In this document: one piece after another, positions 16,029 to 43,443 of the stretch
How positions within the stretch are numbered: position 1 is the first letter of the stretch
Layout: each line of letters starts with the position of its first letter
From: an uncultured Chloroflexia bacterium
Lineage (GTDB): Bacteria > Chloroflexota > Limnocylindria > Limnocylindrales > CSP1-4
Direction: 5' to 3'
NCBI GenBank assembly: GCA_963729175.1
Contig: CAVSMY010000011.1
Span: 151,926 to 215,925, forward strand
Length of the DNA: 64,000 bases
The notes under the pieces: model-generated
Told to the model about the DNA's origin: nothing
The model's input: the letters and a program-made list of their open reading frames with translations, nothing else
Database searches by the model: none
Translations under genes and position numbers: made by a program

Positions 16029-16034
16029 CGGGGG

Positions 16035-17334: not shown

Positions 17335-17351
17335 GACCGGGTCGCGGCGGC

Positions 17352-18366
17352 TCACGAGACCCGTCCCGGTCCGTGGACCTCGGTGGCGCTGGCCGGCCGG
17401 CCCCGCGGACGCTCGTCCGGGTCGGTGCCGGCGGGATCGAGCGTCGCATCGTCGTCGACCGGCCGGCCGACACGCTCGATGAAGACCTGCTCGAGCGATG
17501 GCTCGACGATCTCGAACTTCCGGATCGGGATGCCGCGCTCGATCGCGGCGGTGAGGACCGTGTCCGGCTCGATGCCCGGGTCGAGAGCGAGCTCGACCTC
17601 GTCGGCGCCCGGCCGGACGACCCGGACGCCGGGGATGTCGGCGAGCCAGGCGGTCGGCATCGCCGACCTCGGTCCCGAGGCGGACGGCGCGACCGCCGGT
17701 CGAGCGCTTCACCTCGCGGAGCGAGCCCGCGACGACAAGCCGGCCGCGGTCCACGATGGCGACCGCCTCGCAGAGGGTCTCGACCGTCTCCATCTGGTGG
17801 GTCGAGAAGACGAGCGTCTTGCCGCGGTCCCGCAGCTCGAGGAACGCCTCCCGCAGGAGCGAGGTGTTGACCGGATCGAGGCCGGTGAACGGCTCGTCCA
17901 TGAGCAGCACGTCGGGGTCGTGGAGGATCGCCGCGATGAACTGGACCTTCTGCTGGTTTCCCTTGCTCAGCTGCTCGGCCGGACGCTCGGCGAGGTCCGC
18001 GGCATGGAACCGCGCGAGCCACGAGCGCGCCTCGCGCGCGGCCCGATCTCGCGGCAGCCCGTACAGGCGCCCGAAGTACACGAGCTGGTCGAGGACGGTC
18101 ATCCGGTGGTAGAGGCCGCGCTCCTCCGGCAGGTAGCCGAATGTCGAGCGCGGCAGGTCGGCCGTCGGCTCGCCTCGCCAGCGGATCAGGCCCTCGTCTG
18201 CCCGGACGACCCCGAGGGCGATCCGCATCGTGGTCGTCTTGCCGGCGCCGTTCGCGCCGAGGAATCCGAAGACCGATCCCGGGGCGACCTCGAACGCGAG
18301 GGCGTCGAGGGCGAGGACGGAGCCGAAGCGCTTCGTGACGTGATCGACGTGCAGGCCGCTGGACAT
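17352..18366 (-). pseudogene. ABC transporter ATP-binding protein (NatA-like), one frameshift near 17650
   Basis: MSSGLHVDHVTKRFGSVLALDALAFEVAPGSVFGFLGANGAGKTTTMR...LSKGNQQKVQFIAAILHDPDVLLMDEPFTGLDP...STHQME (ORF 15772..18774 frame, ATG 18366). The C-terminal domain WLADIPGVRVVRPGADEVELALDPG...FEIVEPSLEQVFIERVG is in ORF 17352..17660. Confidence 0.85.
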
Positions 18367-18501
18367 CCGGCGCAGCCTAACCGGGATCAGGCATCCCGAC
18401 CACGGGACCACCGGTGGGGCTCCCCTGCCCCGTCGGTCCGGGTGGTCCGCAGCCGGCGCGCCACCAGACCGCAGCGGCCCGACCCACCGTACGATTGGAG
18501 C

Positions 18502-18864
18502 GTGATCGACCCCGCCGACCGGACCCGCCCGCTCCGCATCCACGCCGACCGTGAGGCCGGTACCCTGTTCATCGCCTGGGCCGACGGGCACGAGACCCTG
18601 TTCGACGCGCCGACGCTCCGGTGGCTGTGCCCCTGTGCGTTCTGTCGGGGTGAGATGGGCATGCCGGGCTGGCTCGACAGCGGGCCGACCCTGACCCCGG
18701 CTCAGACGCGTCTGACCGACATCGGCCTGATCGGCCAGTACGCCGTCCAGCCGACCTGGGGCGACGGCCACCACACCGGGTTCTATGCCTTCAGCCTGCT
18801 GCGCGACCGGTGCTCCTGCAGCGAGTGCGTCGCCCGGCGCGCGGCCGCACCGAGCACCGCATGA
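18502..18864 (+). CDS. DUF971 (gamma-butyrobetaine hydroxylase N-terminal-like, Zn-ribbon) protein
   Basis: C-terminal 120 aa of ORF 16864..18864 from GTG 18502: LRIHADREAGTLFIAWADGHETLFDAPTLRWLCPCAFCRGE...YAVQPTWGDGHHTGFYAFSLLRDRCSCSEC. Confidence 0.7.
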   Translation: MIDPADRTRPLRIHADREAGTLFIAWADGHETLFDAPTLRWLCPCAFCRGEMGMPGWLDSGPTLTPAQTRLTDIGLIGQYAVQPTWGDGHHTGFYAFSLLRDRCSCSECVARRAAAPSTA

Positions 18865-18973
18865 TCACGCTCAGCTGGGGCGTCGGCGCACCGGCTCCAG
18901 CCCCTCCTCGTGCTACGATGCCCGGCCGAACGCTGCATCGCGATCGCGCGTCGACAGCCAGGAGCCAGCCCGG

Positions 18974-21152
18974 GTGACCGCCCTCAAGCCCGCCGACACC
19001 GGGCGCGCCGCAAGCGGCCGCGTCACGCGGGCTCGACGTGTCCGGGCAGCCGCATTCCCGTACCTGAACCGCGAGCTGTCGTGGTTGGAGTTCAACGCCC
19101 GCGTCCTCCATGAGGCCCGCGACGAGCGGAACCCGCTCCTCGAGCGGGCGAAGTTCCTGGCGATCTTCGCGTCGAACCTCGACGAGTTCTTCCAGGTCCG
19201 GATCGCCGGCCTGCGCCAGCAGGTCCAGACCGGCTCGACGTCCGTCTCCGCCGACGGCCGGACGGCCCCCGAGCAGCTGGCCGCGTCGCGTGCCCGCGTC
19301 CTGGAGCTCGTCGCCGAGCACTCGGTCATCTGGACCGACGTCAAGGCCGCGCTCCACGCCGAGGGCATCGCGATCCTCGACTACGACGAGGTCCCCGATC
19401 ACCACACCCGGTTGCGCGAGCGGTTCCTCGACGAGATCTTCCCGGTCCTCACGCCGCTGGCCGTCGATCCCGGCCATCCGTTCCCGTATATCAGCACGCT
19501 CAGCCTGTCGATCGCCGTCGGGCTGCGAGACCCCGACACCGGCGAGCGACGGTTCGCCCGGGTGAAGGTCCCGCCGATCCTGCCTCGGCTGCTCGAGCTG
19601 GATCACGGCCAGTTCGTCCTCATCGACCAGGTGATCGAGGCGAACCTCGACCTGCTGTTCAGCGGGATGGAGATCCTCGAGACCCATCTGTTCCGGGTGA
19701 CCCGCAACGCCGACCTCGCGATCGAGGAGGACGAGGCCGACGACCTGATGTCGGCCATCGAGGAGGAGCTCCGCCGGCGCCGCTTCGGCGAGGCCGTCCG
19801 GCTCGAGGTCGAACGGTCGATGCCGGCGACGACCCGGGCCCTCCTGATCAAGGGCATCGGCCTGGCCGAGGAGGACTGCTTCGAGGTCGCCGGGATGGTC
19901 GACCTGACCTCGCTCTGGCAGATCGTCGCGATCGACCGGCCGGACCTCAAGGACGCGCCCTGGACGCCGGTCACGCCGGCCCGCCTCCAGCCGCCCGACG
20001 ATGACGAGGCGGCGGACATCTTCGCGGCCATCCGGGCCGGCGACGTCCTGGTCCACCACCCCTATGAGAGCTTCGCCTCGACGACCGAGCGGTTCATCGC
20101 CCAGGCGGCGGACGACCCCGAGGTCCTGTCGATCAAGATGACCCTCTACCGGACGTCGGGCGACTCGCCGATCGTCCAGTCGCTGATCCGGGCAGCCGAG
20201 CGCGGCAAGCAGGTCGTCGTCCTCGTCGAGATCAAGGCCCGCTTCGACGAGGAGGCGAACATCGTCTGGGCCCGCAAGCTCGAGCGTGCGGGGGCCCACG
20301 TCGTCTACGGCCTGGTCGGCCTCAAGACCCACAGCAAGACGGCGCTGGTCGTCCGCCGCGAGGGCTCGTTCCTGCGGCGCTACGTCCACATCGGGACCGG
20401 CAACTACAACCCCCGGACGGCGCGCCTGTATGTCGACATCGGGCTGCTCTCGTGCCGCGACGAGCTGGGCGCCGACGTCACCGACCTGTTCAACGTCCTG
20501 ACCGGCCTGTCGCGCCAGCGGACGTTCCGGCGGCTGCTCGTGGCGCCGCACACGCTCCGGACGCGGTTCCTCGACCTGGTCGATCGCGAGATCGCAATTC
20601 GCCGAATCCGGACAGCCGGCCCGGATCGTGATCAAGTGCAACGCGATCGTCGACCCGGCCTGCATCGAGGCCCTCTACCGGGCCAGCCAGGCCGGGGTCG
20701 AGATCGACCTGATCGTCCGGGCGACGTGCGCTCTGCTGCCGGGTGTCGAAGGCGTGTCCGATCGGATCCGGGTCCGCTCCATCGTCGGGGAGTACCTCGA
20801 GCACTCCCGGATCTGGCGGTTCGGGAACGGCGGGCTCGAGGAGTGGTACATCGGGTCGGCCGACCTGATGGAGCGCAACCTCGACCGACGGGTCGAGGCG
20901 GTCGTGCCCGTCGAGGACAGCGTGGCCCGGGCGCGGATCGCCGAGATCATCGAGGTGATGCTCGCCGACGACCGCCACAGCTGGCAGCTCCGGTCCGACG
21001 CGACGTGGCGCCGGACCGAGGTGATCGAGGGCCGGGAAGGCACGATCGGCACGTTCGAGGTCCTCAAGGAACGCGCGCTCTGGCTCGGCGACGCCTCGCT
21101 TATCCCGCATCGACCTGGTGCCGGCGCCGGGTCGATGGACCCGCGTGCCTGA
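18974..21152 (+). pseudogene. ppk: Polyphosphate kinase 1, one frameshift near 20590-20610
   Basis: ORF 18785..21160 frame from GTG 18974: YLNRELSWLEFNARVLHEA...RAKFLAIFASNLDEFFQVR...FPVLTPLAVDPGHPFPYIS...MTLYRTSGDSPIVQSLIRAAERGKQVVVLVEIKARFDEEANI...GLKTHSKTALVVRRE...YVHIGTGNYN. The C-terminus is in ORF 20628..21152 (IKCNAIVDPACIEALYRASQAGVEIDLIVRATC...GEYLEHSRIWRF...SADLMERNLDRRVE). Confidence 0.9.
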
Positions 21153-21173
21153 CGGGATAGGAGTGCTGCACCG

Positions 21174-23189
21174 GTGACCACCGCACGCACGACCGAGATC
21201 GAGCTGAAGTACCGCGTGACCGACTCGGAGGCCGCGGAGCGGTTGGTCGCCGATCACCGGCTCGGCGATCTGATCGCGACCGGCCCGGCCCGCACCAGCC
21301 AGCACGAGGACCACTACGTCGACACGGCCGACGGCGCCCTCGCCCGGGCGGGGTTCGCGGTCCGGCTCCGCCAGGCGGGCGGCGCGACGATCGTCTCGAT
21401 CAAGTCGCTCGCCCGCGACGGCGGCGGCGCGCTGCATCGACGGGTCGAGCTCGAAGGGCCTGCGGATCGGGCGACCCGTCCGCATGACTGGCCGGGCTCG
21501 GCCGCCCGATCGATGATCCTCGAGCTCGCCGGCGACGCGCCCCTCGTCCAGCTCGTGGCCCTCCGGCAGCTCCGCCGGAAGCGACGCTACGCCCGCGACG
21601 GGACCGAGGTCGAGCTGAGCCTCGATTCGGTGGATGTCGTGGATCGGGGCCGGATCATCGACTCGTTCCGCGAGCTCGAGGTCGAGCTGGTCGCGGGCGA
21701 CCCGGCCGTCCTTGACGGGCTGGCGGAGCGGCTGGCGGACAGCCCCGGCCTCGACGCCGCCGAGCGCTCCAAATACGAATTGGCGCTCGATGCCGCGGGC
21801 ATCGTCATCGGTCGCACGTCCGCCGGACCCGGCGACCCGGCCGGACGGCCCTCGCGAGCGCGGAGCCGGGCGAAGCCGCCCGAGTCGACCGCGGCCCCGG
21901 TCGTCGCCGAGGAGTCCCAGAAGCCGGCCGAGCCGATGGCGACGTCCGCACCCGCCACCGGCGGGCCAGCGGACCCCACGACCACCGGCGAGACGAACGG
22001 CGCGGCGACGGATCGCCCGCCGACCTCGCCGACCACGAACGGCAGCGCGCCTCTCGCTGGGGACCCTGACGCCGAGTCCGGGTCGACCCCGGGGACGACG
22101 TCCGAGGATCCGGCCGGATCGCCGCGGCCGGCGCGGACGGGTGCCGGCGCGGCCAGACGGGCCGCGAGTGCGAAGGCGGCCGAGGCTCCGGTCGGTGCAT
22201 CGGAGGCGCCCGACGCCGCCGCACCTGAGTCAGCGGAGGCACTCCCGATCCTCGTCGTCGGGAAGACGCCCGGCGTGCGGGCCGACGACACGCTCGCCGA
22301 GGCCGGTCGGAAGATCCTCCGCTTCCACCTCGCCCGGATGCTCGCCCGAGAGCCGGGCACGCGGACCGGCGAGGACATCGAGGACCTCCACTCGATGCGC
22401 GTCGCGACCCGTCGGATGCGGGCCGCGTGGCGGGTCTTCGGCGACGCCTACCGGCCCGGCCGGACCAGGCGATATCGGCGCGATCTTCGAGACGTCGCGC
22501 GCCGGCTCGGCGCGGTCCGCGACCTCGACGTCCTGCTCGACGGGATCGGGGCCTACGCGAAGACCCAGTCGGCCCAGGAGCGCGACGGCCTTGAGCCGCT
22601 CGTCGCGGCGTGGCGCCGACGTCGCGAAGAGGCCCAGGTGCTCCTGCTCCGGACGCTCGACACGCCCGCCTATGGCCGCTTCTCCGAGGAGTACCGCGAG
22701 TTCGTCAGCACCGACGGCCTGGCGGTCCTGCCGGTCGCCCCGACGGCGCCTCATCGGGTCCGGGACCGGATGCCGTCGCGGATCTGGACCGCGTACGAGC
22801 AGGTCCGGGGTTACGAGCCGGTCCTGCGGTGGGCCGACGTCGAGACCCTCCACGAGCTCCGGATCGCGGCCAAATGGCTCCGTTACACGATCGAGTTCGT
22901 CCGCGAGCCGCTCGGCGTCGAGTCGGCCGTCCTGATCGAGCGCGTCGTCGCGCTGCAGGACCACCTGGGCTACCTGCACGACGCCGATGTCGCAGCGAAC
23001 CTCGCCCGGTCATTCCTCGTCGAGCACGCCGGCGACCTCTCGGACCATGAGACCGCGGCGATCGGCCGCTACCTGATCGACCGCGAGCGCGAGCTGGCGC
23101 GCCTCCGCCGGACCGTCGGCCCGACCTGGCGCCGTGTCGCGGGCCTTGCCTATCGGCGCGCGCTCGCCCGGACGATCGCCGGCCTCTAG
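21174..23189 (+). CDS. CYTH domain (triphosphate tunnel) - CHAD domain fusion protein with long disordered linker
   Basis: ORF 21174..23189. N-terminus EIELKYRV...HEDHYVDTADGALARAGFAVRLR...VELSLDSVDVV...FRELEVEL (CYTH). About 170 aa of Pro/Ala/Thr/Ser-rich linker. C-terminal CHAD helices (DIEDLHSMRVATRRMRAAWRVF...LHELRIAAKWLRYTIEF). Confidence 0.85.
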   Translation: MTTARTTEIELKYRVTDSEAAERLVADHRLGDLIATGPARTSQHEDHYVDTADGALARAGFAVRLRQAGGATIVSIKSLARDGGGALHRRVELEGPADRATRPHDWPGSAARSMILELAGDAPLVQLVALRQLRRKRRYARDGTEVELSLDSVDVVDRGRIIDSFRELEVELVAGDPAVLDGLAERLADSPGLDAAERSKYELALDAAGIVIGRTSAGPGDPAGRPSRARSRAKPPESTAAPVVAEESQKPAEPMATSAPATGGPADPTTTGETNGAATDRPPTSPTTNGSAPLAGDPDAESGSTPGTTSEDPAGSPRPARTGAGAARRAASAKAAEAPVGASEAPDAAAPESAEALPILVVGKTPGVRADDTLAEAGRKILRFHLARMLAREPGTRTGEDIEDLHSMRVATRRMRAAWRVFGDAYRPGRTRRYRRDLRDVARRLGAVRDLDVLLDGIGAYAKTQSAQERDGLEPLVAAWRRRREEAQVLLLRTLDTPAYGRFSEEYREFVSTDGLAVLPVAPTAPHRVRDRMPSRIWTAYEQVRGYEPVLRWADVETLHELRIAAKWLRYTIEFVREPLGVESAVLIERVVALQDHLGYLHDADVAANLARSFLVEHAGDLSDHETAAIGRYLIDRERELARLRRTVGPTWRRVAGLAYRRALARTIAGL

Positions 23190-23265: not shown

Positions 23266-24513
23266 CTACGGGATCCAGCCGTGGGCGAGCGCTTCGAGCC
23301 GGTCGCGCCAGGCCCGGCCGGCATGCTCCGTGACCATGACCAGGCCCTCGCGGATGCCGGCTTCGGAGACCGTCAGCTGATCGAGCCCGTAGTGCTCGAG
23401 GACCGCATCCAGGATGACCGCACCCGCCGGCAGGATCCGCGCTCGGATCGGGTTGACCGCGTGGCGCTCGGCTGCGACCGAGGCCGGCTCGGTCAGCAGG
23501 ACGGACAGAGCCTCGTCGAGCCGGCGGCGGTCCAGGGTCCGGTCGAGGGCCGCGGCGGGCAGGACCCGCAAGAGGTTCGAAGCGGTCCCGCCGACCGCGA
23601 CGAGCTCGGTCGGTGACGCTCGGCGGGTCCGGCCGACGAGCCGACGGGCGGCAGCGCGCATCGCCTCGATCTCGGCGGGCACCGGCGGGTCGTGCTCGAC
23701 CCAGCGATCGGCGAGGCGCGCGCTGCCGGCCTCGATCCCGACGGCGTTCGCGGGATGCGCGGGGCCGACGAACACGATCTCACTGCTCCCGCCGCCGACG
23801 TCGAGGACCGCCAGCTCGGTCGAGACCGGACGCCCAGCGGTCACGCCGACGAGCGTGAGATATGCCTCCTCCTCGTGGCTCACGACGTGGAGCGGCAGGC
23901 CGCTCGCGGCTTCGACGGCCCGGATCGCCCGAGCTGCGTCGGCGACGCGACGGAGCGGCTCCGTCCCGACGAATGTGATCGACCGAGCGCCGAGCCGGCG
24001 GGCGGTCGCGCCGTAGCCGACGAGCGTGGCGACAAGGGCGCCGCGGGTCTGCTCGCCGAGCAGGCCACCGTCGGCCGCCGCACCCAGACCGAGGAACACC
24101 GACTCGTCGATGAGCGGCTCGATCCGATGCGGGGTGACGACCGCGACGAGCAGATGGACCGAGTTCGCCCCGCAGTCGACCGCCCCCACGACGGTCGGCT
24201 GGCGGTCCGCGGCGGTACGCCTCCGAGCGGCCGTGGCCGAGGTGGCGGCCCGAGCGCGGGTCGTGCCGGTCCTCCCGGCCGCTGGGGTGGTCGATCGGCG
24301 CGCGGTCGTGGCCGTCGACGTCCGGGTCGACGTGGCGGTCGATGTCGGGGTCGAGGTTGTGGTCGACGAGCGCGACCCGCGCCGCGACCGTCGCCCGCTA
24401 GCCTCCTCCGGCGCCGTCGTCGGGGCGATCGGGTCGAAGGGACCTCCGGTGATCGTCGGCCAGCCCGGCCGACACGGGTTCCGGCTCCGAAGCCGGCACG
24501 GGTCCGGGCTCAC
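23266..24513 (-). CDS. ppx: Exopolyphosphatase / GppA family (Ppx) with low-complexity N-terminal extension
   Basis: ORF 23266..24513. Core VGAVDCGANSVHLLVAVV...FVGTEPLRRVADA...EEEAYLTLVGV...VLDVGGGSSEIV...AVGGTASNL. GTG 24513 overlaps the upstream stop (GTGA). The first ~105 codons are Ser/Thr/Arg-rich, and a later start (GTG just before GAVDCG, about 24195) cannot be excluded. Confidence 0.8.
   Translation of the reverse strand: MSPDPCRLRSRNPCRPGWPTITGGPFDPIAPTTAPEEASGRRSRRGSRSSTTTSTPTSTATSTRTSTATTARRSTTPAAGRTGTTRARAATSATAARRRTAADRQPTVVGAVDCGANSVHLLVAVVTPHRIEPLIDESVFLGLGAAADGGLLGEQTRGALVATLVGYGATARRLGARSITFVGTEPLRRVADAARAIRAVEAASGLPLHVVSHEEEAYLTLVGVTAGRPVSTELAVLDVGGGSSEIVFVGPAHPANAVGIEAGSARLADRWVEHDPPVPAEIEAMRAAARRLVGRTRRASPTELVAVGGTASNLLRVLPAAALDRTLDRRRLDEALSVLLTEPASVAAERHAVNPIRARILPAGAVILDAVLEHYGLDQLTVSEAGIREGLVMVTEHAGRAWRDRLEALAHGWIP
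24314..24370. repeat. 12-bp tandem repeat x4.75 (GTCGACGTSSSG-like) inside the ppx 5' region
   Basis: gtcgacgtccgg gtcgacgtggcg gtcgatgtcggg gtcgaggttgtg gtcgacgag, read directly. Encodes (TSTx)n in the ORF frame, or (D-x-D-x) with 100 percent GC3 in the neighbouring minus frame. Confidence 0.7.
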
Positions 24514-25724
24514 CCGCCGGGGCGGGCGGTGGACCCGCGGCGGGCGGCGGACCGACCTCTGCAGGTGGGGGGGCAGCGGGCGCCGGAGCCGCAGCAGGCG
24601 GCCGGGCCGACTCGCCCGGCCGGACCCGCCGACCCATCGAGGTCGCCGCGACGCGGGCTACGGGCCCGTCGCGCGGCCGCAGGCGGTCCGGCGGCCGGCG
24701 CCTCGGTCACCGCCTCGACGGCCCGCTCGACCGGCATCTCGGCCTTCGCTTCGGCGGCATCGACCGGCGCCGTCTCCATCACGGGTTCGCCGACCTCCGG
24801 CACCGTCGTGGCCTCCGGCGCAGTCTCGGACTCGATGGGGAGCGCGGCATCCGACTCGACCGGGATCGCGGTCTCGGGCGTGACCGACACGGCCATCGGA
24901 TCCGGCAGCGGCAGGTCGACCGTCGTCGAGGCGACCTCGGCCATCGCATCGGCGGTAGCTCCGGTCGCGGGGCTGGTCCTCGACTTGCCGTTCGATCGAC
25001 TCGTGCCCGCTGCGCTCGTCCGGGTCGTGGTGGGTCGGGCCGGACCGCTCCGGCTCGCTGGCTTCGATACCGACCGCGGCGTCCGCTTCGATGCCGCCTT
25101 CGATGCCGGTCGCGCGGCGCCGACCCGGGTCACCCGACCGGCGGCCGCAGCCGTGCCCTTCGCCACTCGTGTCGCCGCCTCGGCCGTGGCGCGCGTCGCA
25201 CGGGTCGTGACCGTCGCCGTGCCGCGGACCGCGCGGGTCGCCGCCTTGGCCGTGGCCCCGCGCACGCCGCGCGCGGCCTGGACCGTCGCACCGGCGACCT
25301 CGGCCGTCACCGCGGCGACACCGCGTCCCGCGCCGGCCGTGGCGCCAGATGCGTCGCGCGCGACATCGATGCCCGCCTCGGCGAGATCGTTCAGCTCGGC
25401 CTCGGCGCGATCGAGCAGGGCCCGCGCCGCATCGGCGGTCGGTTCCTCGACCGATCGGGCGAACTCGCGGATGCGAGCGGCCACGCCCTGGAGCTCGTCG
25501 ACGGCGGCCTCGAGCTGCCGACGGCGCTTGCCACGTCCCCTGCCGGCTCTCTCCGCGTCCTCGAGCTGGCGGCGCCGCTTGCGGGCCAGTCGGAAGACGT
25601 CGTCGAGCTCCGCGTCGAGCGTCCTGAGCCGGCGGCGGGCGGCCCGCTCCGCGTCGCGCATCGCCTCGTCCGTGCCCGCGATCTCGTGGGCTCGTTCTCG
25701 TGCCGTCTTGGTGGCCTTGGCCAT
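24510..25724 (-). CDS. Hypothetical protein: N-terminal coiled coil, basic Ala/Thr/Arg repeat block, acidic Pro/Glu tail
   Basis: In the ORF 24510..26015 frame from ATG 25724, with GAGGAG (25731-25736) 6 nt upstream. MAKATKTARERAHEIAGTDEAMRDAERAARRRLRTLDAELDDVFRLARKRRRQLEDAERAG...; middle ...RGATAKAATRAVRGTATVTTRATRATAEAATRVAKGTAAAAGRVTR...; tail ...PETAIPVESDAALPIESETAPEATTVPEVGEPVMETAPVDAAEAKAEMPVERAVEAVTEAP. No family recognised. Confidence 0.65.
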   Translation of the reverse strand: MAKATKTARERAHEIAGTDEAMRDAERAARRRLRTLDAELDDVFRLARKRRRQLEDAERAGRGRGKRRRQLEAAVDELQGVAARIREFARSVEEPTADAARALLDRAEAELNDLAEAGIDVARDASGATAGAGRGVAAVTAEVAGATVQAARGVRGATAKAATRAVRGTATVTTRATRATAEAATRVAKGTAAAAGRVTRVGAARPASKAASKRTPRSVSKPASRSGPARPTTTRTSAAGTSRSNGKSRTSPATGATADAMAEVASTTVDLPLPDPMAVSVTPETAIPVESDAALPIESETAPEATTVPEVGEPVMETAPVDAAEAKAEMPVERAVEAVTEAPAAGPPAAARRARSPRRGDLDGSAGPAGRVGPAACCGSGARCPPTCRGRSAARRGSTARPGG

Positions 25725-25737
25725 GATCCGCTCCTCG

Positions 25738-26670
25738 TCAGCGGGCGGCGTCGCGCCGCCCAAGGCCGCCTTCGAACAGGGTCGCCGGTCGTCCCGTCGC
25801 GACAGACCGGCGGCGGACGACCAGTGTGCCACCTTCGACGTCGATCTCGAGGAAGCTCGCGTCACGGCGGCCGTCGTTGACGAGCGCGCCGGCGCTGGCC
25901 ACGACCAGCGCCCGCTCGCCGGTCGCGATCCGCCAGGCATGAGCCCGATGGACGTGTCCATGGAGGGCGAGGTCGACCTCGAGATCGAGGAGCAGGGCGA
26001 GGACGTCTCCGGCACGATGACTCAGGTCGCCGTCGCGGAGCTTCCGGCCGGGGACCGGCAAGAGACCGTGATGGAGGGCGAAGACGCGCAGGGCGCCGCG
26101 GTCGGCCCGCCGCATCGCCTTGGCCGCTTTCTCGAGCGTCGACGACCGCAGGCGGGGGTTCGAGTCGACACCGACGACGTGGAGGCGGTCGGTCGCGATG
26201 ACCGGGGTCGGGTCGCCGAACCGGGCGGTCCACCGATCGAGCGGTGACGCGGAGTCAGCATCCGCCGGAGACCCGGTCGCCGCCGCATCGGCGTCCGCCG
26301 GCGACTCCAGACCCAGGCTCAGGACCGGCTCGAGGGCGAGGAAGTCGTCGAGGTCTGCATCGACCGGCAGCGCGCGGGCTTCGCCGGGGGCCCCGACCGA
26401 GGGCACGAGGTCGCGGTTGCCGGGGATCACCAGGCGTGGCACCGCGAGCCGTCGGAGCGCCCGGTGGACCGCATCGAGCTCGTCCGGGCGGCCGTCCGCG
26501 GTCAGATCGCCCGTCACGACCGCCAGGTCGGGTGCCGACGACGCGACCCGCTCGATCAGCTGGTCGAGGGCGGCGGCGAGCTCCGGGGAGCCGTCGTAGT
26601 GGAGATCCGACAGATGGGCGATCCGGATCCGGCCCGCGTTCCGGATCCGGTCCGCGGTCCGACGACCCAT
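25738..26670 (-). CDS. Metallophosphoesterase (calcineurin-like)
   Basis: ORF 25738..26670. Motif order IAHLSDLHYD, VVTGDLTADG, VIPGNRDL, FALHHGL, LHGHVHRAH. The start overlaps the upstream stop by 1 nt (TGATG at 26668-26672). Confidence 0.8.
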   Translation of the reverse strand: MGRRTADRIRNAGRIRIAHLSDLHYDGSPELAAALDQLIERVASSAPDLAVVTGDLTADGRPDELDAVHRALRRLAVPRLVIPGNRDLVPSVGAPGEARALPVDADLDDFLALEPVLSLGLESPADADAAATGSPADADSASPLDRWTARFGDPTPVIATDRLHVVGVDSNPRLRSSTLEKAAKAMRRADRGALRVFALHHGLLPVPGRKLRDGDLSHRAGDVLALLLDLEVDLALHGHVHRAHAWRIATGERALVVASAGALVNDGRRDASFLEIDVEGGTLVVRRRSVATGRPATLFEGGLGRRDAAR

Positions 26671-27308
26671 CAGCCGACCCCCGCCAGCGCCCCGGCCAGG
26701 TGCCGGTCGACGGCCGCCTCGATCCGTGGCTCGACCAGGACGGGCGGACCGTCGGCATCGATCCGGACGAAGCCGTCGCGGGCCGCGAGCTCGGTGAACA
26801 GGGCCCCGAGGCGCGACTGGTAGAGCCGGTAGCTCTCATGCAGGTCGGACGCGAGACCCAGATCGAGCCCGGCCTCGTAGGGATGCGGCTCGCGGTCGCG
26901 CCGGCCGAGCGAGGTCTCGACCGACACATCGAGCCAGACGACGAGGTCCGGCGGAGGCGCGAAGGCGAAGACGGCGGCGAGCCAGGCCGGGTCCACGCCG
27001 CGGACGGCCGCCCGGACCTGCGGTGTCGCGGTGTAGCGGTCGACGAGCACCACGAGCCCGGCCTGAAGGGCCGGGCCGATCGTCAGCTCGAGTCGCTCCG
27101 CGAGGTCGGCCGCGTACAGGAGGGCGAGCGCGGCGGCGTCATGGCTGCGCTCGTTGCGGGCCCGGCGGATCCGTGGCCCGGCGATCTCCGACGTCCCGAG
27201 CGACGAGCGGACGACGGCTCGGCCGACGCCCCGGAGGTGCTCCTCGAGGAGGGCGGCGTGGGTCGAGCGCCCGGACCGGTCGATGCCCTCGAGCACGATG
27301 AGGCTCAC
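26670..27308 (-). CDS. Thymidylate kinase-like protein with degenerate P-loop
   Basis: In the ORF 26670..27395 frame from GTG 27308 (GTGA overlap with the upstream stop). VSLIVLEGIDRSGRSTHAALLEEHL...LLYAADLAERL...VLVDRYTATP...PPDLVVWLDV. The Tmk-like motif order is kept, but the Walker A reads GIDRSGRST instead of GxDGxGK(S/T)T. Confidence 0.7.
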   Translation of the reverse strand: MSLIVLEGIDRSGRSTHAALLEEHLRGVGRAVVRSSLGTSEIAGPRIRRARNERSHDAAALALLYAADLAERLELTIGPALQAGLVVLVDRYTATPQVRAAVRGVDPAWLAAVFAFAPPPDLVVWLDVSVETSLGRRDREPHPYEAGLDLGLASDLHESYRLYQSRLGALFTELAARDGFVRIDADGPPVLVEPRIEAAVDRHLAGALAGVG

Positions 27309-27946
27309 AGGATCGGCCGGATCGCGCCACGGACGCGGCGCTCCAGGTCCTCTCGCGGAAGGCGGGCATCGAGCCGCAGGACGGTGACCGGCCACGGCGT
27401 CGCATCAGCATCCTCCGCGGTCGCGGCAAGTCCGTCGTAGGCGGCGAGGAGCCGCTCGACGAACGCCCGGTAGGCATCACCCACCACCGCGAGCTCCTCC
27501 GTCCTGGGCCGGGAGGCAAGAGCCCGCTCCACGACGACGGCCGAGCGCTCGCGGAACAGGAGCACCAGATCGGGCCGCGGCAGCGGCGCATGGAGCGTCC
27601 CGAGCCAGGTCGGGTCGAGCCCCCGGGCAGCGTGCCGCGCGACGGCGGTCCAGGCGTAACGGTCGGCGAGCACGATCCGGCCGTCGGCGAGGCGAGGCCG
27701 GATCCGTCGATCGGCCGCGGCCACGTCGTCGGATGCCTCGAGGAGGGCCGCCACCCGCGGCGTCAGGCGCGTCCGGCCGCGGGCCGATGCGGTCGCGGCG
27801 CGGACCGAGGGACTCGGTTCGCGGGCGACGACGCTGACCCGCCGACCGCTCCGCTCGAGCCATCGCGCGAGGCGCTCGATCGTCGTCGTCTTGCCGACCC
27901 CGTCCGGTCCCTCGGCGGCGATGAGGAGCGGCTGCGTGACGGGCAT
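27305..27946 (-). CDS. Thymidylate kinase-like P-loop kinase
   Basis: ORF 27305..27946. LLIAAEGPDGVGKTTTIERLARWLERSG (intact Walker A), VLADRYAWTAVA (DRY motif), RPDLVLLF. First gene of the operon. Confidence 0.75.
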   Translation of the reverse strand: MPVTQPLLIAAEGPDGVGKTTTIERLARWLERSGRRVSVVAREPSPSVRAATASARGRTRLTPRVAALLEASDDVAAADRRIRPRLADGRIVLADRYAWTAVARHAARGLDPTWLGTLHAPLPRPDLVLLFRERSAVVVERALASRPRTEELAVVGDAYRAFVERLLAAYDGLAATAEDADATPWPVTVLRLDARLPREDLERRVRGAIRPIL

Positions 27947-28009: not shown

Positions 28010-28048
28010 GCTAACCCATCGTTAACGTGGAGCCCATGACCCGTTGAC
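28010..28048. promoter_or_regulatory. Pho-box-like direct repeats in the divergent promoter between the tmk-like operon and the atypical regulator
   Basis: gCTAAC (28010) - 11 nt - GTTAAC (28021) - 22 nt - GTTGAC (28043). On the minus strand this reads GTTAACgatggGTTAGC, the same GTTAAC-N5-GTTAR unit as at 28801 and 44307. Confidence 0.5.
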
Positions 28049-28071: not shown

Positions 28072-28788
28072 ATGCCCATCGCGGACCCGGCTGCCCGGCA
28101 CGACGGCCTCGCTGGCCCGTGGCTCGCCCTCGCGACCGACGGACCGATCGTCGGAGCCTGCGTCCTTGCCGGAGCGACCGCCCGCAGGACGGCCGATCCG
28201 TCGGAGCTGGCGGAGCTCCTCGACACGCTGCGCCCGCGGGTCGTGCTCGTCGGGTCGCCACCGGCCGGCCCTGCCGAGCTCGACCTCGTCGCGACCGAGC
28301 GACGGAGGCGGTCGTCGATGCGGGCGGTCCTGGTCGATGCGCCGGACGCCAGCGACGAACGGCTCGAGGCGCTCAGCCTGGGGTTCGACGAGGCGCTGCC
28401 GGACACGATCGCGGTGTCCGAGCTCCTCGGCAGGACGCGGCTCCTGCTCCGCCCCGGGTCGCGTCACCTCGCGGCGCGACCTGGCGCGTCGATCCCCCTG
28501 GGCCTCGACCTCGAGCTCGACCTGAGCGGGCAGGCCCTCCGCCGGGGCAGCCAGGCGATCCACCTCCGCCCGAAGGAGTATCGGCTGCTCGCCTTGCTGG
28601 CGACCCATCCGGGCCGCGTCTTCAGTCGTCGGCAGCTCCTCGACCGGGTCTGGGGTCCGGGCCACGAGGCCGATCCCCGGACCGTCGATGTCCACATCCG
28701 CTGGCTGCGCTCGAAGGTCGAGGCGGACCCGGAACGGCCCGAGCGGCTCGTGACGGTCCGCGGGACCGGCTATCGGCTCGACCCCTGA
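28072..28788 (+). CDS. OmpR/PhoB-family winged-helix regulator with degenerate (pseudo-)receiver domain
   Basis: ORF 28072..28788. C-terminus LRPKEYRLLALLATHPGRVFSRRQLLDRVWGPGHEADPRTVDVHIRWLRSKVE...LVTVRGTGYRLDP. The N-terminal REC-like region lacks the acidic pocket and phospho-acceptor Asp (PRVVLVGSPPAG where PDLVLLDxxLPG is expected). Confidence 0.8.
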   Translation: MPIADPAARHDGLAGPWLALATDGPIVGACVLAGATARRTADPSELAELLDTLRPRVVLVGSPPAGPAELDLVATERRRRSSMRAVLVDAPDASDERLEALSLGFDEALPDTIAVSELLGRTRLLLRPGSRHLAARPGASIPLGLDLELDLSGQALRRGSQAIHLRPKEYRLLALLATHPGRVFSRRQLLDRVWGPGHEADPRTVDVHIRWLRSKVEADPERPERLVTVRGTGYRLDP

Positions 28789-28800: not shown

Positions 28801-28822
28801 GTTAACGGAGCGTTAACCGAAC
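28801..28822 (+). promoter_or_regulatory. Pho box: two 11-nt direct repeat units upstream of pstS
   Basis: GTTAACggagc GTTAACcgaac (28801-28822), with a third related hexamer GTTGAA at 28835. About 120 nt upstream of the pstS start. Confidence 0.6.
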
Positions 28823-28942: not shown

Positions 28943-30148
28943 GTGACGATGATGACGAAGCGCCTGGCCGCCCTGGGTCTTGGTGCGGCGTTCGCGCTGT
29001 CCGCCTGCTCCAGCGGGGCCACTCCCGCCCCGAGCGCGGCAGCGAGTCCGAGCGCCGCATCCAGCCCCAGCGCCGCCGCCAGCCCGAGCGCTGCGGCCAG
29101 CTCCAGTGCCGCTGCCAGCCCCAGCGCCGCGGCCCTGCCGACCACCCCGCCACCGCCGACCGGCGACGTGACCCTGCAGGGTTCGGGAGCGACCTTCCCG
29201 GCCCCCTTGTACAACGCCTGGATCGAGTCGTATGGCGCGGCCTATCCGAACATCAAGATCGACTATCAGGCGATCGGCTCCGGCGGCGGGATCAAGGCCA
29301 TCACCGAGCAGACCGTCGACTTCGGCGCCTCTGACGCGCCGATGCAGGATACGGAGGTCGCCGCCCTGCCGGCCGGGACGAAGGTCCTCCACGTGCCGAT
29401 GGCACTCGGCGCCGTCGTCATGATCTACAACCTGCCCGGCATCTCGGACCTCCAGCTCGACGATGCGAACATCGCGGGTCTGTTCCTCGGGACGATCACC
29501 AAGTGGAACGATGCAGCCATCGCCGCCAACAACCCGGGCGTGACGCTGCCGGACACCGCCGTGACGGTCTGCCATCGATCGGATGGGTCGGGCACGACGA
29601 ACGCGTTCACGACCTTCCTCGACACGGTCAGCCCCGACTGGCACACCCAGGTCGGCAAGGGCAAGGAAGTGAACTGGCCGGTCGGCATCGGTGGTCAGGG
29701 CAATGACGGCGTGGCCGGCTGCGTGAAGCAGACCGAAGGGGCGGTCGGCTATGTCGAGCTCAACTACGCCACGACCGCGAACCTCACCTCAGCCAAGGTG
29801 AAGAACGCCGACGGCAACTGGGTCTCCGGCTCGACGGCCGGTGTCACGGCGGCCGCCGAGGCCGCGGTGGCGGACTTCCCCGACGACTTCCGCCAGGCCC
29901 CGATCATCAATGGCGCGGGCGCGGACACCTACCCGATCGCCTCGTACACATTCCTGCTCGTCTATCAGGACCAGAAGGACGCGACGAAGGGCCAGGCGCT
30001 CCTCTCGTACATGGTCTGGTGCCTGACCGATGGCCAGAAGGGCGAGGAGACCCTGGGCTACGCCCCGCTCCCGTCCGAGGTCCAGACCAAGTCGCTCGAC
30101 CTGCTTCACACCATCACGGCCAACGGCGCGCCGATCTGGCCGATGTAG
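28943..30148 (+). CDS. pstS: Phosphate ABC transporter substrate-binding lipoprotein PstS
   Basis: ORF 28943..30148. Lipobox AFALSAC, Ala/Ser/Pro linker, then GSGATFPAPLY..W...YQAIGSGGGI...FGASDAP...HRSDGSGTT. GGAGGA upstream. The start could also be ATG 28949 or 28952. Confidence 0.9.
   Translation: MTMMTKRLAALGLGAAFALSACSSGATPAPSAAASPSAASSPSAAASPSAAASSSAAASPSAAALPTTPPPPTGDVTLQGSGATFPAPLYNAWIESYGAAYPNIKIDYQAIGSGGGIKAITEQTVDFGASDAPMQDTEVAALPAGTKVLHVPMALGAVVMIYNLPGISDLQLDDANIAGLFLGTITKWNDAAIAANNPGVTLPDTAVTVCHRSDGSGTTNAFTTFLDTVSPDWHTQVGKGKEVNWPVGIGGQGNDGVAGCVKQTEGAVGYVELNYATTANLTSAKVKNADGNWVSGSTAGVTAAAEAAVADFPDDFRQAPIINGAGADTYPIASYTFLLVYQDQKDATKGQALLSYMVWCLTDGQKGEETLGYAPLPSEVQTKSLDLLHTITANGAPIWPM
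29039..29128 (+). repeat. 18-bp tandem repeat x5 encoding (AAS[PS]SA)n linker of PstS
   Basis: Units gcagcgagtccgagcgcc, gcatccagccccagcgcc, gccgccagcccgagcgct, gcggccagctccagtgcc and gctgccagccccagcgcc, read directly. Confidence 0.8.
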
Positions 30149-30253: not shown

Positions 30254-31216
30254 ATGGCCCAGGACATCGAAGCCCCGCCACTGAAGCTTCCCTCGACGGG
30301 CTCCCGGTGGCCGGACCGGCTGTTCCGCGGCACGTCCAGGCTCGCCGCATGGGCGATGGTCGCGATCCTCATCGGACTCGCGATCATGCTGACCCTGAGC
30401 TCGATCCCGGCATTCCAGGAGTTCGGGGTGTGGGACTTCGTCACCGGGACCGTCTGGGACCCGGTCAAGAGCATCTACGGCGCGCTGCCGTACATCGTCG
30501 GCACGATCCTGTCGTCGCTCATCGCCCTGATCATCGCGGCGCCGATCGCGATCCTCACTGCCATCTACCTGGCCGAGCTCGCCCCGCCGCGGATCGCCAC
30601 CCCGCTGACCTTCCTCATCGAGCTGATCGCCGCGATCCCGAGCGTCGTCATCGGCCTCTGGGGCGTGTTCGTCCTGACGCCGTTCCTCAAGGGCACGGTC
30701 GAGAGCTGGGTCGTCTCGAACTTCGGCTGGATCCCGATCTTCCAGGGTCCGCCGCTCGGCGTCGGGCTATTCGCGGCCGGCGTCATCCTGTCGATCATGA
30801 TCCTGCCGACGATCGTGACGATCTCGCGCGAGGTCATCCGATCGGTCCCCGACAACCAACGCGAGGCGATGCTCGGCCTTGGCGCCACGCGCTGGGAGAC
30901 GACGTGGAAGGCCGTCCTGCCGTTCGCCCGATCCGGCATCGTCGGTGCGATCATCCTGGGCCTCGGCCGGGCCCTCGGCGAGACGATGGCGGTGACGCTG
31001 GTCATCGGCAACAGTCCGAAGCTACCCGACTCGATCTTCGATCAGTCGCAGACCATCGCGTCGAAGATCGCGACGACGTTCAATGAGGCGAGCGTCGGCC
31101 TCCAGACCTCGAGCCTCATCGCCCTGGGCCTCATCCTGCTGGTCATCACGATCCTGCTCAACATCGCGGCGCGTGGCCTTGTCTGGAGCGTCGCCGGTGC
31201 CGTGAAGGCCGAGTGA
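30254..31216 (+). CDS. pstC: Phosphate ABC transporter permease PstC
   Basis: ORF 30254..31216. Multi-TM. LAELAPPRIATPLTFLIELIAAIPSVVIGLWG and the EAMLGLGATRWET motif. Confidence 0.9.
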   Translation: MAQDIEAPPLKLPSTGSRWPDRLFRGTSRLAAWAMVAILIGLAIMLTLSSIPAFQEFGVWDFVTGTVWDPVKSIYGALPYIVGTILSSLIALIIAAPIAILTAIYLAELAPPRIATPLTFLIELIAAIPSVVIGLWGVFVLTPFLKGTVESWVVSNFGWIPIFQGPPLGVGLFAAGVILSIMILPTIVTISREVIRSVPDNQREAMLGLGATRWETTWKAVLPFARSGIVGAIILGLGRALGETMAVTLVIGNSPKLPDSIFDQSQTIASKIATTFNEASVGLQTSSLIALGLILLVITILLNIAARGLVWSVAGAVKAE

Positions 31217-31217
31217 C

Positions 31218-32105
31218 ATGACCGCCGCCGCGACCCCTCGGGTCACCGCTCAGCTGCTCGAGCGCACCAGCGCCGACCGCCGTCGCATGATCGTCGATCG
31301 GACGATGCGGGCGCTCTGCATGATCGCTGCGGTCGCCTGCGTCGTGCCCCTGGCTGCGATCATCGCCTACGTCGTGATCAACGGCCTCCAGGCGCTCTCG
31401 CTCGACCTGGTCATCAGGCCGCCGACCGCATCGGGCGTCAACGGCGGAGCGCTCAACGCGATCCTCGGCAGCATCCAGATGGTCGGACTCGCGTCCCTCA
31501 TGGCCATCCCGATCGGGATCCTGGGGGGTGTCTTCGTCCACGAGTTCAGTGACCGCCGGTCCGCCCGGACGATCCGCTTCGCTGCCGACGTCTTCGTCGG
31601 TGTGCCGTCCATCCTCGTGGGCATCTTCGTCTTCACGATCCTCGTGCTGCCGTTCAAGCAGTACAACGCCTTCGCTGGCAGCGTCGCCCTGGCGTTCATC
31701 ATGATCCCGGTGATCCTTCGGTCGACCGAGGAGATCCTGAAGCTCGTTCCCGGGACGCTTCGCGAGGCCTCACTGGCACTCGGTGTGCCGATGTGGCGGA
31801 CGGTGGGCTCGATCATGGTCCGGACCGGACTGCCCGGGATCCTCACCGGCGTCATGCTGGCGGTGGCCCGAGCTGCCGGCGAGACGGCGCCGCTCCTGTT
31901 CACCGCGCTGGGCAGTCGGCTCGTCAACATCGGCGACTTCTCCAAACCGATGGATGCCCTGCCACTCTTCATCTACACCAACGCGCGGCAGCCGTACCCG
32001 GTGCTCAACGCCCAGGCGTGGGGCGCGTCGCTGCTGCTGCTGATCTTCGTCCTGTCCATCAACATCCTGGTGCGCTTCCGCACCCGGTCCGAGCGCATCA
32101 GGTAG
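31218..32105 (+). CDS. pstA: Phosphate ABC transporter permease PstA
   Basis: ORF 31218..32105. [15 protein letters not shown] and [10 protein letters not shown] motifs. Starts 1 nt after the pstC stop. Confidence 0.9.
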
Positions 32106-32115
32106 GAGGGCCCAG

Positions 32116-33057
32116 ATGATGTCCGTCGAGCGGCCCGATCCCCCGCCGGCCGCGCCCGACCCGATCGCCGATGACATCGGTCCCCTGCCCGTCGATGACA
32201 GTCCAGCGGCGGACCGGCGGGACGGTCATCCGGCGGTGCCCGTGCCGATCGCCCGCCCGGTGGCGACGCCGGAGGACGAGGCCGCCAGTGGGCGGATCTC
32301 GGTCCAGGATCTGTCCGCCTACTACGGCACGTTCCGGGCCGTCCGTGACGTCTCGATGGAGATCAAGCCTCACGCGGTCACGGCGATCATCGGTCCGTCC
32401 GGCAGCGGCAAGAGCACATTCATCAGATCGCTCAACCGGATGCACGAGCTGAACCCCGGTGCCCGGATCGAGGGCCATCTGTTTCTCGACGGCACGGACC
32501 TGTATGCGCCGTCCGTGGATGCCGTCCAGCTCCGGCGGGTCATCGGGATGGTCTTTCAGCGACCCAACCCCTTCCCGACGATGTCGATCTGGGGGAATGT
32601 GGTCGCCGGACTCAAGCTGACCGGCCGTCACCGCAAGTCGGAGCTTGACGAGGTCGTCGAACGATGCCTCCGTCAGGCAGCGCTGTGGGACGAGGTGAAG
32701 GACAAGCTTGACCAGAGCGGTGTGTCGCTGTCCGGCGGACAGCAGCAGCGCCTGTGCATCGCCCGCGCCCTCGCGGTCGGACCGAGCGTCCTACTCATGG
32801 ACGAGCCGGCGTCAGCCCTCGACCCGATCTCGACCCTCCGGATCGAAGAGCTGATCCTCGAGCTCCGCACGACCTACACGATCGTGATCGTCACCCACAA
32901 CATGCAGCAGGCGTCGCGCGTGAGCGATCAGACGGCATTCCTCAACATGGGCGACGACGGCGCCGGCTACCTCGTCGAGATCGGCGACACGGTCGAGATC
33001 TTCACCAACCCCAAGAACCAGGTGACCGAGGACTACGTCTCCGGTCGGTTCGGCTGA
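32116..33057 (+). CDS. pstB: Phosphate ABC transporter ATP-binding protein PstB (about 55-aa N-terminal extension)
   Basis: ORF 32116..33057. [62 protein letters not shown] 5 nt upstream of ATG 32116 supports the long N-terminus. Confidence 0.9.
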
Positions 33058-43440: not shown

Positions 43441-43443
43441 AGG

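Follow-up and report, generated by a model that had tools for sequence, protein, structure and literature searches.

The 64,000-nucleotide stretch of contig CAVSMY010000011.1 analysed here (hereafter the window; G+C about 72% throughout), from an uncultured Chloroflexia bacterium, carries five consecutive minus-strand genes set among genes of polyphosphate (polyP) and inorganic phosphate (Pi) metabolism. They encode two proteins resembling thymidylate kinase (Tmk; genes 1 and 2), a calcineurin-like metallophosphoesterase (gene 3), a basic low-complexity protein (gene 4) and a phosphatase of the Ppx/GppA family (gene 5). We consider the two Tmk-like proteins to be the two subunits of PPK3, the third type of polyphosphate kinase, and the genes around them to form a bacterial PPK3-type polyP locus of what we call the Limnocylindria type, a reading to which we attach a probability of roughly 0.7. 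The locus is most likely a lineage-specific variant of this known system and not an unknown system. What is specific to the lineage is a divergent catalytic subunit from which the lid is deleted, a metallophosphoesterase with the motif GNRD, an AlgP-like protein and adjacency to PPK1.

PPK3 was presented in a 2024 preprint and subsequently by Hofmann et al. (Journal of Biological Chemistry 2026, PMC12995831). In Sulfolobus acidocaldarius, two 'thymidylate kinases' adjoining ppx constitute a heteromeric polyP kinase (SaPPK3), of which Saci_2019 (cPPK3) is the catalytic subunit and Saci_2020 (rPPK3) is inactive, activating cPPK3 through oligomerisation to an alpha2beta2 complex; neither has dTMP kinase activity. 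The enzyme is reversible, with the direction polyP + ADP -> ATP preferred approximately 50-fold. The family consists mostly of bacterial dTMP kinase paralogs, with both subunits present in every predicted operon, and arose within the dTMP kinase superfamily separately from PPK2; its operon neighbours include PPX, CHAD, PstS/C, SixA and NUDIX proteins (PMC12995831). A preliminary description of the window, made from the sequence alone, had postulated a Pho-linked module whose Tmk-like pair serves polyP or nucleotide phosphotransfer, and this agrees with a cPPK3 and an rPPK3 placed beside ppx, CHAD and pst genes. Its further statement that no function had been described for this gene combination is out of date, given the 2024 preprint and the 2026 article.

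Probable kinship of the Tmk-like pair with PPK3

Both proteins match the Pfam family Thymidylate_kin, and both fall below the equivalog cutoff of the NCBIfam dTMP kinase model TIGR00041 (61.3 bits for gene 1 and 77.9 bits for gene 2, against a cutoff of 83.25). In phmmer searches of the PDB the best match of each is the cPPK3 homolog ST1543 (2PLR/5H70), with E-values of 1e-16 for gene 1 and 4e-23 for gene 2, the best canonical Tmk following at 1e-12 and 1.5e-9 respectively. The same order is seen in pairwise phmmer scores: gene 1 reaches 68 bits with Saci_2019, 79-85 bits with the A and B subunits of other bacterial pairs and 47 bits with Thermus thermophilus Tmk, the corresponding values for gene 2 being 88, 111-117 and 41 bits. 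AlphaFold2 models were obtained with mean confidence (pLDDT) of 93 for gene 1 and 95 for gene 2, and the top eight Foldseek matches of the gene 2 model are all ST1543, at template-modelling (TM) scores of 0.83-0.88. In a crude neighbour-joining tree of 39 sequences, cPPK3 forms a clade at 95% bootstrap, and the B subunits, the gene 1 family and the gene 2 family each do so at 100%; bootstrap support for placing gene 2 with cPPK3 and B is 36-49%, and the deep branches do not resolve.

Residue states were compared column by column across 118 cPPK3, 41 gene 1-family and 119 gene 2-family sequences. In cPPK3, Lys or Arg makes up at least 90% of the residues in thirteen columns. Of these the gene 1 family keeps ten (including the Walker A Lys, Lys52/54, Arg73, Arg92, Arg100, Arg104, Arg137, Arg142 and Arg201), the gene 2 family seven and canonical Tmk four to five. 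Trp26 and Trp38 are also kept by the gene 1 family, and Lys53 and Lys146 of cPPK3 are lost. The Walker A Lys, the Arg of the DRY motif, Arg100, Arg104, Arg137 and Arg142 are each retained in 38-41 of the 41 gene 1 homologs. The gene 2 family shares the states W26H, W38L, K54D/E and K146D with other bacterial B subunits and with Saci_2020. In both window families the column of the Arg that presumably holds the dTMP phosphate in Tmk is Ala or Leu, so that this Arg is absent, and the column of the Gln/Tyr which we take to contact thymine is Arg, namely the PPK3-specific Arg100. Because of these states in the basic columns, at positions 26, 38, 54 and 146 and at the dTMP site, gene 1 is the predicted counterpart, by position and by residue, of cPPK3, and gene 2 that of rPPK3.

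The P-loop of gene 1, EGPDGVGKTT (Walker A GVGKT), and its DRY motif are present as previously described, and so is the sequence EGIDRSGRST of gene 2 (Walker A SGRST, with Lys replaced by Arg), which retains DRY and EAGLD. The label 'degenerate' that had been given to gene 2 is misleading, however: Walker A reads GRS in 120 of 120 homologs, 43 columns are invariant across the family, and the second gene carries the Lys-to-Arg change in all 24 paired loci, drawn from four phyla, the first gene reading GK[ST]. Since the replacement is invariant in those 120 homologs it is a selected feature and not decay, gene 2 being under strong purifying selection. The earlier suggestion that gene 2 is a non-catalytic partner agrees, as far as sequence can say, with the regulatory role of rPPK3. 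Separately, in three divergent members of the gene 1 family (P0037, P0038 and P0043) Walker A reads GTS, NTS and GSD with DRY kept, and a canonical P-loop lysine may be lacking from both subunits in the genomes concerned.

Homologs of gene 1 form only 48 clusters, mainly from metagenome-assembled genomes (MAGs) carrying the label Candidatus Limnocylindrales or Chloroflexota. When species-representative genomes were scanned, 32 loci were obtained. The order pstSCAB <-> tmkA-tmkB-metallophosphoesterase-(gene 4-like)-ppx <- CHAD <- ppk1, in which tmkA and tmkB correspond to genes 1 and 2, was found in 16 Limnocylindria-type loci and in L034, the closest relative of the window (69% identical in gene 1 and 74% in gene 2); synteny in these 17 loci was scored wherever the contig was long enough. 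A neighbourhood search for two tmk-like genes with a metallophosphoesterase and ppx had been proposed in the preliminary description, and it is this order that recurs in the 17 related loci.

MAGs of Longimicrobiales, Sumerlaeota and Bacillota (loci L017-L024) also contain A/B pairs in tandem, overlapping by 4 nt; the tandem and its overlap are seen in 24 paired loci, and the genes of S. acidocaldarius are likewise tandem and overlapping. Like the window, these loci have A (GKS) followed by B (GRS/GRT) and an adjacent ppx, which adjoins the pair in three other phyla, as a long-form Ppx/GppA directly upstream in Longimicrobiales and downstream in Bacillota. In Longimicrobiales a basic low-complexity protein, phoB/phoR-like genes and pstCAB follow the pair. 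Unlike the window, their A subunit is a clear ortholog of Saci_2019 (44-51% identical in the three groups) with an intact lid, and they have no ppk1 or CHAD gene within 10 kb. They also lack the metallophosphoesterase and a member of the gene 4 family, both of which were found, among the loci examined, only in those of Limnocylindria type.

In sum, the pair has the dTMP kinase fold, is closer in sequence to cPPK3/ST1543 than to Tmk, forms a tandem of a c-type and an r-type gene in a polyP/Pi neighbourhood, and keeps the ATP-site residues and the basic cleft of the catalytic subunit and not the dTMP-site residues, with the caveat of the lid-loop deletion in gene 1. The likeness to the S. acidocaldarius locus extends to adjacent, overlapping dTMP kinase paralogs, one with the full catalytic motif set and one altered, to the replacement of dTMP-binding residues, and to a ppx with CHAD, SixA-like and pst genes close by. 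The differences are that the host there is an archaeon, whereas the present locus is bacterial and Chloroflexota-like; that two additional conserved genes (for the metallophosphoesterase and the basic protein) belong to the operon here; and that the first subunit of the window is without the EAGxD lid loop. PPK2 (PF03976) is likewise a P-loop kinase with a proposed role in polyP-driven nucleotide phosphorylation beside PPK1, and two-domain class II PPK2s, too, combine an active module with an inactive one. Genes 1 and 2 nevertheless have no Pfam match to PPK2, and PPK3 is of separate origin.

Several points weigh against this interpretation. Most genomes with PPK3 have neither PPK1 nor PPK2 (PMC12995831), and here PPK1 is adjacent; the PPK3 characterised so far comes from one archaeon only. 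Gene 1 has diverged strongly (35% identical to Saci_2019), its family does not fall inside the cPPK3 clade of the crude tree (bootstrap 36-41%), and a Foldseek search with its model gives a tie between ST1543 and T. thermophilus Tmk, the fold search being non-discriminating in this case. The gene 1 family has a 9-residue deletion which removes the EAGxD lid loop, and the Walker A Lys is missing from 3 of its 48 clusters. Saci_2020 keeps GKT and reads DGY, with the Arg of DRX lost, whereas gene 2 keeps DRY and replaces the Lys by Arg; the lesion of gene 2, which is predicted to be inactive, is thus unlike that of the archaeal rPPK3s. Lastly, the roles suggested below for the products of genes 3 and 4 are drawn from analogy, and gene 4 itself is interrupted in the window.

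Proposed mechanism and competing explanations

If the pair is indeed PPK3, genes 1 and 2 would be exapted dTMP kinase paralogs, made in fixed proportion because their starts and stops overlap, and would probably form a heteromer like the alpha2beta2 complex of SaPPK3. Gene 1 would catalyse reversible phosphate transfer between polyP and ADP/ATP, mainly in the direction polyP + ADP -> ATP, and gene 2, with its invariant Walker A Arg, would act as the non-catalytic, oligomerising and activating subunit. The metallophosphoesterase, as a candidate polyphosphatase of endo or short-chain type, may hydrolyse phosphoanhydride bonds, Ppx would free Pi at the chain ends, and the gene 4 protein might organise the polymer as an AlgP/histone-H1-like binder of polyP or of the nucleoid. 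Synthesis and coating of polyP would fall to the neighbouring PPK1 and CYTH-CHAD proteins. A regulator of the PhoB/PhoP type would probably drive the operon together with pstS under Pi limitation, shared control being suggested because both carry 11-bp-phased repeats of the GTTAAC type. What the sequence itself demonstrates is the homology, the motif states, the synteny and the repeats; from these, activity, subunit roles, the substrates of the phosphoesterase and of gene 4, and Pho control are inferred.

The alternative that survives best, which we regard as unlikely though worth weighing, accepts the place of the pair in the PPK3 clade and denies that it is an ADP/ATP-polyP kinase in this lineage: it would use another acceptor (a nucleoside mono- or diphosphate, or one of (p)ppGpp type), or would be a non-catalytic polyP or nucleotide sensor regulating Ppx, the phosphoesterase or PPK1. 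A Walker A Arg in P-loop enzymes generally permits binding and not transfer, and the Arg of gene 2 is invariant; together with the absence from the gene 1 family of the lid loop, Lys53 and Lys146, and the three members without the Walker A Lys, this favours such a departure, as does the presence of PPK1 for synthesis and the capacity of Ppx/GppA enzymes, reflected in the family name, to act on pppGpp. Set against it are the catalytic residues kept in 38-41 of 41 gene 1 homologs (the Walker A Lys, the DRY Arg and Arg100/104/137/142), which point to a working phosphotransferase site, and a genomic context that is wholly one of polyP and Pi (ppx, CHAD, ppk1 and pst).

It is considerably less probable that gene 1 is a housekeeping thymidylate kinase, gene 2 its decaying duplicate and the link to polyP incidental. 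Fold, P-loop, DRY and lid Arg residues are shared with canonical Tmk, both proteins match the Pfam family, gene 1 reads AREPS in resemblance to the canonical TREPGG, its model matches T. thermophilus Tmk and ST1543 equally well, and homologs are automatically annotated 'dTMP kinase'. Yet both proteins miss the curated cutoff, and the canonical dTMP-phosphate Arg and thymine-contacting Gln/Tyr are replaced in both families. Gene 2 bears the marks of purifying selection, with its 43 invariant columns and GRS in every homolog; the pair keeps its polyP neighbours in 17 loci and in more than one phylum; and Saci_2019 and Saci_2020 are themselves devoid of dTMP kinase activity. Within the 64 kb of the window, a phmmer search found no third Tmk homolog.

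An anti-phage or nucleotide-depletion defence system built from the kinase-like pair and the phosphoesterase was rejected as hardly credible, since the matches in its favour (genes 1 and 2 with the PADLOC candidate PDC-M51B at 30-38 bits, and gene 3 at 53 bits with DS9_1, an anti-phage phosphoesterase model of NCBIfam whose cutoff is 420) lie far under threshold and reflect generic fold similarity, and since the locus is chromosomal, syntenic in the Pho/polyP cluster of all relatives and not in a variable defence island, with the same G+C as the rest of the window.

The phosphoesterase, the basic protein and Ppx

Gene 3 scores 53 bits with Pfam Metallophos (PF00149; cutoff 21.5). The metallophosphoesterase motifs DxH, GD, H and GHxH are present, and GNH reads GNR; all 17 homologs have the metal-ligand motifs and GNRD unchanged, and they also share the family-specific invariant segments LHHGLLPVPGRKLRDGD and AGALVNDGRRDAS. 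Its closest solved relative is GpdQ, at weak similarity (best PDB match, E=8e-4), from which the family is set apart by these segments. GNRD in place of GNH(D/E) is also seen on the LpxH chains in the PDB, although gene 3 has no sequence match to LpxH, an enzyme which cleaves a pyrophosphate bond. Yeast Ppn2 is a metallophosphatase of the same superfamily with endopolyphosphatase activity, again without a sequence match to gene 3. Because the GNRD motif is that of LpxH and Ppn2 cuts polyP, gene 3 is by analogy a candidate hydrolase of phosphoanhydrides, either polyP or short polyP.

Gene 5 scores 113 bits with Pfam Ppx-GppA (PF02541; cutoff 27), and the N-terminal DxGSNS motif of the ATPase fold reads VDCGANSVHLL. 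Homologs in 13 loci match at 1e-90 to 1e-117. The score with the 'exopolyphosphatase' model TIGR03706 is 164 against a cutoff of 307; the protein is placed by its sequence in the Ppx/GppA family of phosphatases, as had been noted earlier, at a level that does not fix the exact substrate. For all four conserved enzymes (genes 1, 2, 3 and 5) the Pfam profile searches agree with the family labels of the preliminary description.

Gene 4 is of a different character. Profile searches place it in no Pfam or NCBIfam family, and it has only three matches among 1.84 billion representatives, with no family assigned. Searches with gene 4 by phmmer and tblastn returned no homologs in the loci (tblastn without composition correction is uninformative at the G+C of the window), and its relatives were found instead by position, motif search and alignment. 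The family so defined comprises proteins of 165-386 aa with an isoelectric point (pI) of 11.4-12. Each has a helical head of about 110-125 aa with the common core ...LEKRL..AR..E.KRRRQL..., a variable basic low-complexity middle region rich in Ala, Thr, Pro, Arg and Lys, in places built of tandem repeats (KPATTA 14 times in L014, AAKPAA in L008), and the C-terminal motif RRSL[QRH]P. The window member has a helical head, an Ala/Thr/Arg block, an acidic Pro/Glu stretch and the terminal RRSLRP. The 11-residue periodicity previously perceived in the basic block is borne out by the spacing of Lys/Arg residues, with z-scores of 3.8 for the window protein and 4.4 for that of the closest relative.

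AlgP is a histone-H1-like protein of Pseudomonas aeruginosa that localises to polyP granules and spaces them (PMC9239181). The gene 4 family resembles AlgP/PhaF of Pseudomonas in having a helical head of about 120 aa, a long disordered basic region rich in Ala, Pro and Lys (Thr/Arg) and a genetic link to polyP. It differs in that there is no significant sequence similarity (with AlgP_Nterm, NF038178, cutoff 100 bits, the best result was E=0.89 and 9.9 bits from one of eight family members, the window protein having no match), in a basic region that is Arg/Thr-rich and not KPAA, in the RRSL[QRH]P motif and in its place inside a PPK3-ppx operon; the clade of the window adds the acidic Pro/Glu insert. 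The AlgP-like architecture and the high pI of the family are consistent with the earlier proposal of a polyanion binder, and by this analogy the gene 4 protein is a candidate AlgP/histone-H1-like binder of polyP or of the nucleoid. The basic protein of the Longimicrobiales loci is a second, unrelated low-complexity protein tied to PPK3. It has 170-200 aa, of which the N-terminal part is basic and rich in Lys, Pro, Ser and Ala and the C-terminal part is a conserved helical domain. It has no Pfam match and is encoded after the PPK3-like pair and next to phoB/phoR-like genes (11375-11887 in L017, 10599-11207 in L020).

The reading frame of gene 4 is disturbed in the window. In 11 relatives the head and the RRSL[QRH]P tail share one frame, with ppx at +1 some 120-180 nt downstream, and in L034 the gene is uninterrupted, encoding 386 aa that end in SRRSLRPDSPDSGAGGGG before the stop. 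The DNA for that C-terminus aligns at 86% identity to window positions 24449-24401. The window reads HRRSLRPDRPDDGAGGG at 24449-24398 (minus strand), closed by the stop TAG at 24400-24398, in a frame +1 from that of the head. Because the conserved tail lies out of frame with the head here and in a single frame in 11 relatives, the sequence indicates that gene 4 carries a +1 frame change at about 24700-24600; third-position G+C also switches frame several times between 24800 and 24200. The change could be a real lesion, or it could be an assembly indel, the latter because frameshifts occur in several long-read MAG loci of the set, because L014 shows the same pattern as the window, and because assembly of short reads from the same sample gave a public contig that breaks near 24683. 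A programmed frameshift is unlikely, as 11 relatives are single-frame, L034 is unshifted and P0169 is garbled differently. The preliminary description had given gene 4 a length of 404 aa and an acidic Pro/Glu/Val end; this acidic Pro/Glu stretch does exist, and L034 has it as well, but the protein continues beyond it to the conserved tail in the other frame.

The boundary with gene 5 needs corresponding revision. Homology to Ppx and to TIGR03706 begins only at about residue 109 of the 415-aa gene 5 open reading frame (ORF), DNA homology to L034 begins at about 24193, and the only in-frame starts are GTG at 24189 and GTG at 24513, of which the latter is unsupported. Out-of-frame read-through is common at 75% G+C. 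Because the Ppx core runs from about 24193 and gene 4 ends at 24398, the GTGA at 24510-24513, previously taken for a coupled junction, is the product of two over-extended, out-of-frame ORFs. The interval from the gene 4 stop to the start of the Ppx core measures about 205 nt, about 110 nt more than in L034. Over 24460-24280 (minus strand), third-position G+C in one frame ranges from 0.82 to 1.00, with its peak at 1.00, and that frame reads VDHNLDPDIDRHVDPDVDGHD; this may be coding, for instance as an acidic N-terminal part of Ppx put out of frame and comparable to the EPAIEP repeats of L005, or it may be non-coding.

Gene neighbourhood, possible phosphate control and significance

Features of the locus and its surroundings are collected in the table. 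Genes 1-3 and the start of gene 4 (ATG at 25724) were called identically by an independent gene caller on the public short-read contig, and three of the previously listed junctions are in the sequence: a 4-nt GTGA overlap of genes 1 and 2 (27305-27308), TGATG between genes 2 and 3 (26668-26672), and a 13-nt gap between genes 3 and 4 that reads TGA, c-GAGGAG-cggatc and ATG, with GAGGAG at 25731-25736. A simple scan for promoters and terminators found none inside the five-gene operon. The tight coupling claimed for all five genes stands from gene 1 to the start of gene 4, and fails at the junction of genes 4 and 5.

Features of the putative PPK3-type locus and its neighbourhood (positions in the window; a dot marks a feature without a strand).
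Feature	Position	Strand	Remarks
gene 1, cPPK3-like putative catalytic subunit, dTMP kinase fold	27305-27946	-	213 aa; Pfam Thymidylate_kin 6e-18
gene 2, rPPK3-like putative regulatory subunit	26670-27308	-	212 aa; Pfam Thymidylate_kin 7e-19
gene 3, calcineurin-like metallophosphoesterase with GNRD	25738-26670	-	310 aa; Pfam Metallophos 6e-14
gene 4, basic protein, interrupted by frame change	24398-25724	-	from alignment of relatives; head-frame ORF runs to 24510
gene 5, short-form Ppx/GppA exopolyphosphatase core	23266-24189	-	Pfam Ppx-GppA 2e-32; ORF 23266-24513
ppk1, convergent	18785-21160	+	domain search
CYTH-CHAD fusion, convergent	21174-23189	+	domain search
OmpR/PhoB-type regulator, divergent	28072-28788	+	Pfam Trans_reg_C only, residues 161-236
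pstS	28943-30148	+	
pstC	30254-31216	+	
pstA	31218-32105	+	
pstB	32116-33057	+	
phoU	33123-33824	+	3' of pstB
SixA/PhoE-like His_Phos_1 gene	34199-34696	+	3' of phoU
Pho-box-like direct repeats GCTAAC-N5-GTTAAC-N16-GTTGAC, 11-bp phasing	28010-28048	.	divergent promoter of gene 1 and regulator
GTTAAC-N5-GTTAAC direct repeat	28801-28817	.	upstream of pstS

The neighbours are as the preliminary description had them, with ppk1 and the CYTH-CHAD gene convergent, the Trans_reg_C regulator and pstSCAB divergent, and phoU after pstB. A SixA gene is also found in the S. acidocaldarius PPK3 operon, the same accessory set recurring in rearranged form in the window. Farther out, a DUF971/GBBH-like_N homolog maps to 18502-18828 (plus strand), the PP_kinase_N domain of the ppk1 ORF begins only at residue 93, and a 1000-aa ABC ORF occupies 15772-18774 (minus strand); because of the position of the DUF971 homolog and the late onset of PP_kinase_N, the starts of the ppk1 and ABC ORFs are probably over-extended.

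The direct repeats of the GTTAAC type noticed earlier in the promoter region are well above chance. GYTRMC-N5-GYTRMC occurs 4 times in the 64 kb, against an expectation of 0.23, and no shuffle reached this number; two of the matches lie at 28010-28026 and at 28801-28817. In six relatives GTCAAC-N5-GTTGCC-N5-GTTAAC stands upstream of tmkA. An 11-bp phasing of direct repeats is characteristic of PhoB/PhoP boxes, and for this reason Pho control of the operon and of pstS is plausible from the sequence. A third match (43443-43459) lies at the 3' end of the gene for a canonical OmpR/PhoB-type response regulator (43444-44295, minus strand; Response_reg and Trans_reg_C) that is 38% identical to the divergent regulator at 28072-28788. 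In the latter Pfam finds no recognisable receiver domain, its N-terminal 150 or so residues resembling a receiver that has degenerated and shows no evident phospho-acceptor Asp. Six loci (L001, L002, L004, L005, L008 and L010) have a conserved TATGAT box downstream of three 11-bp-phased GTYRMC repeats; because this box is only 8-9 nt before the ATG of tmkA, a leaderless or near-leaderless transcript is suggested there.

For the PPK3 family at large, the implications concern both its extent and its naming. PPK3 has been reported from 'a few scattered bacteria' (PMC12995831). At E<=1e-8 the cPPK3 homolog ST1543 has more than 5,000 matches among database proteins, which suggests that the family is much larger, and PPK3-like pairs are common in MAGs of soil and freshwater bacteria (Chloroflexota, Gemmatimonadota, Sumerlaeota and Bacillota). 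In public databases, nearly all proteins of the cPPK3-like family and of the families of genes 1 and 2 are annotated as 'dTMP kinase' or 'thymidylate kinase', and hundreds of database 'dTMP kinase' proteins are probably mis-named. The bacterial second subunit has a different and invariant signature, the Walker A change of Lys to Arg, and PPK3 gains two conserved candidate partners, the GNRD phosphoesterase and the AlgP-like basic protein.

The occurrence of a PPK3-like pair and PPK1 in one Pho-type cluster suggests a division of labour in which PPK1 makes polyP and PPK3 returns ATP. More tentatively, and with appreciable doubt, the Limnocylindria-type operon may be an elaborated polyP 'utilisation machine' with three undescribed parts: a scaffold family, a GNRD endopolyphosphatase and a sensor subunit. 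If that were true, a fast-evolving polyP-granule or nucleoid scaffold family, with its helical head, basic repeats and RRSLxP docking motif, would be hard-wired to PPK3 and Ppx; the GNRD metallophosphoesterase would be the first bacterial endopolyphosphatase of its superfamily; the invariant Walker A Arg of the regulatory PPK3 subunit would make it a sensor of nucleotides or polyP and not a dead enzyme; and PPK3 could work against PPK1 in the same cell.

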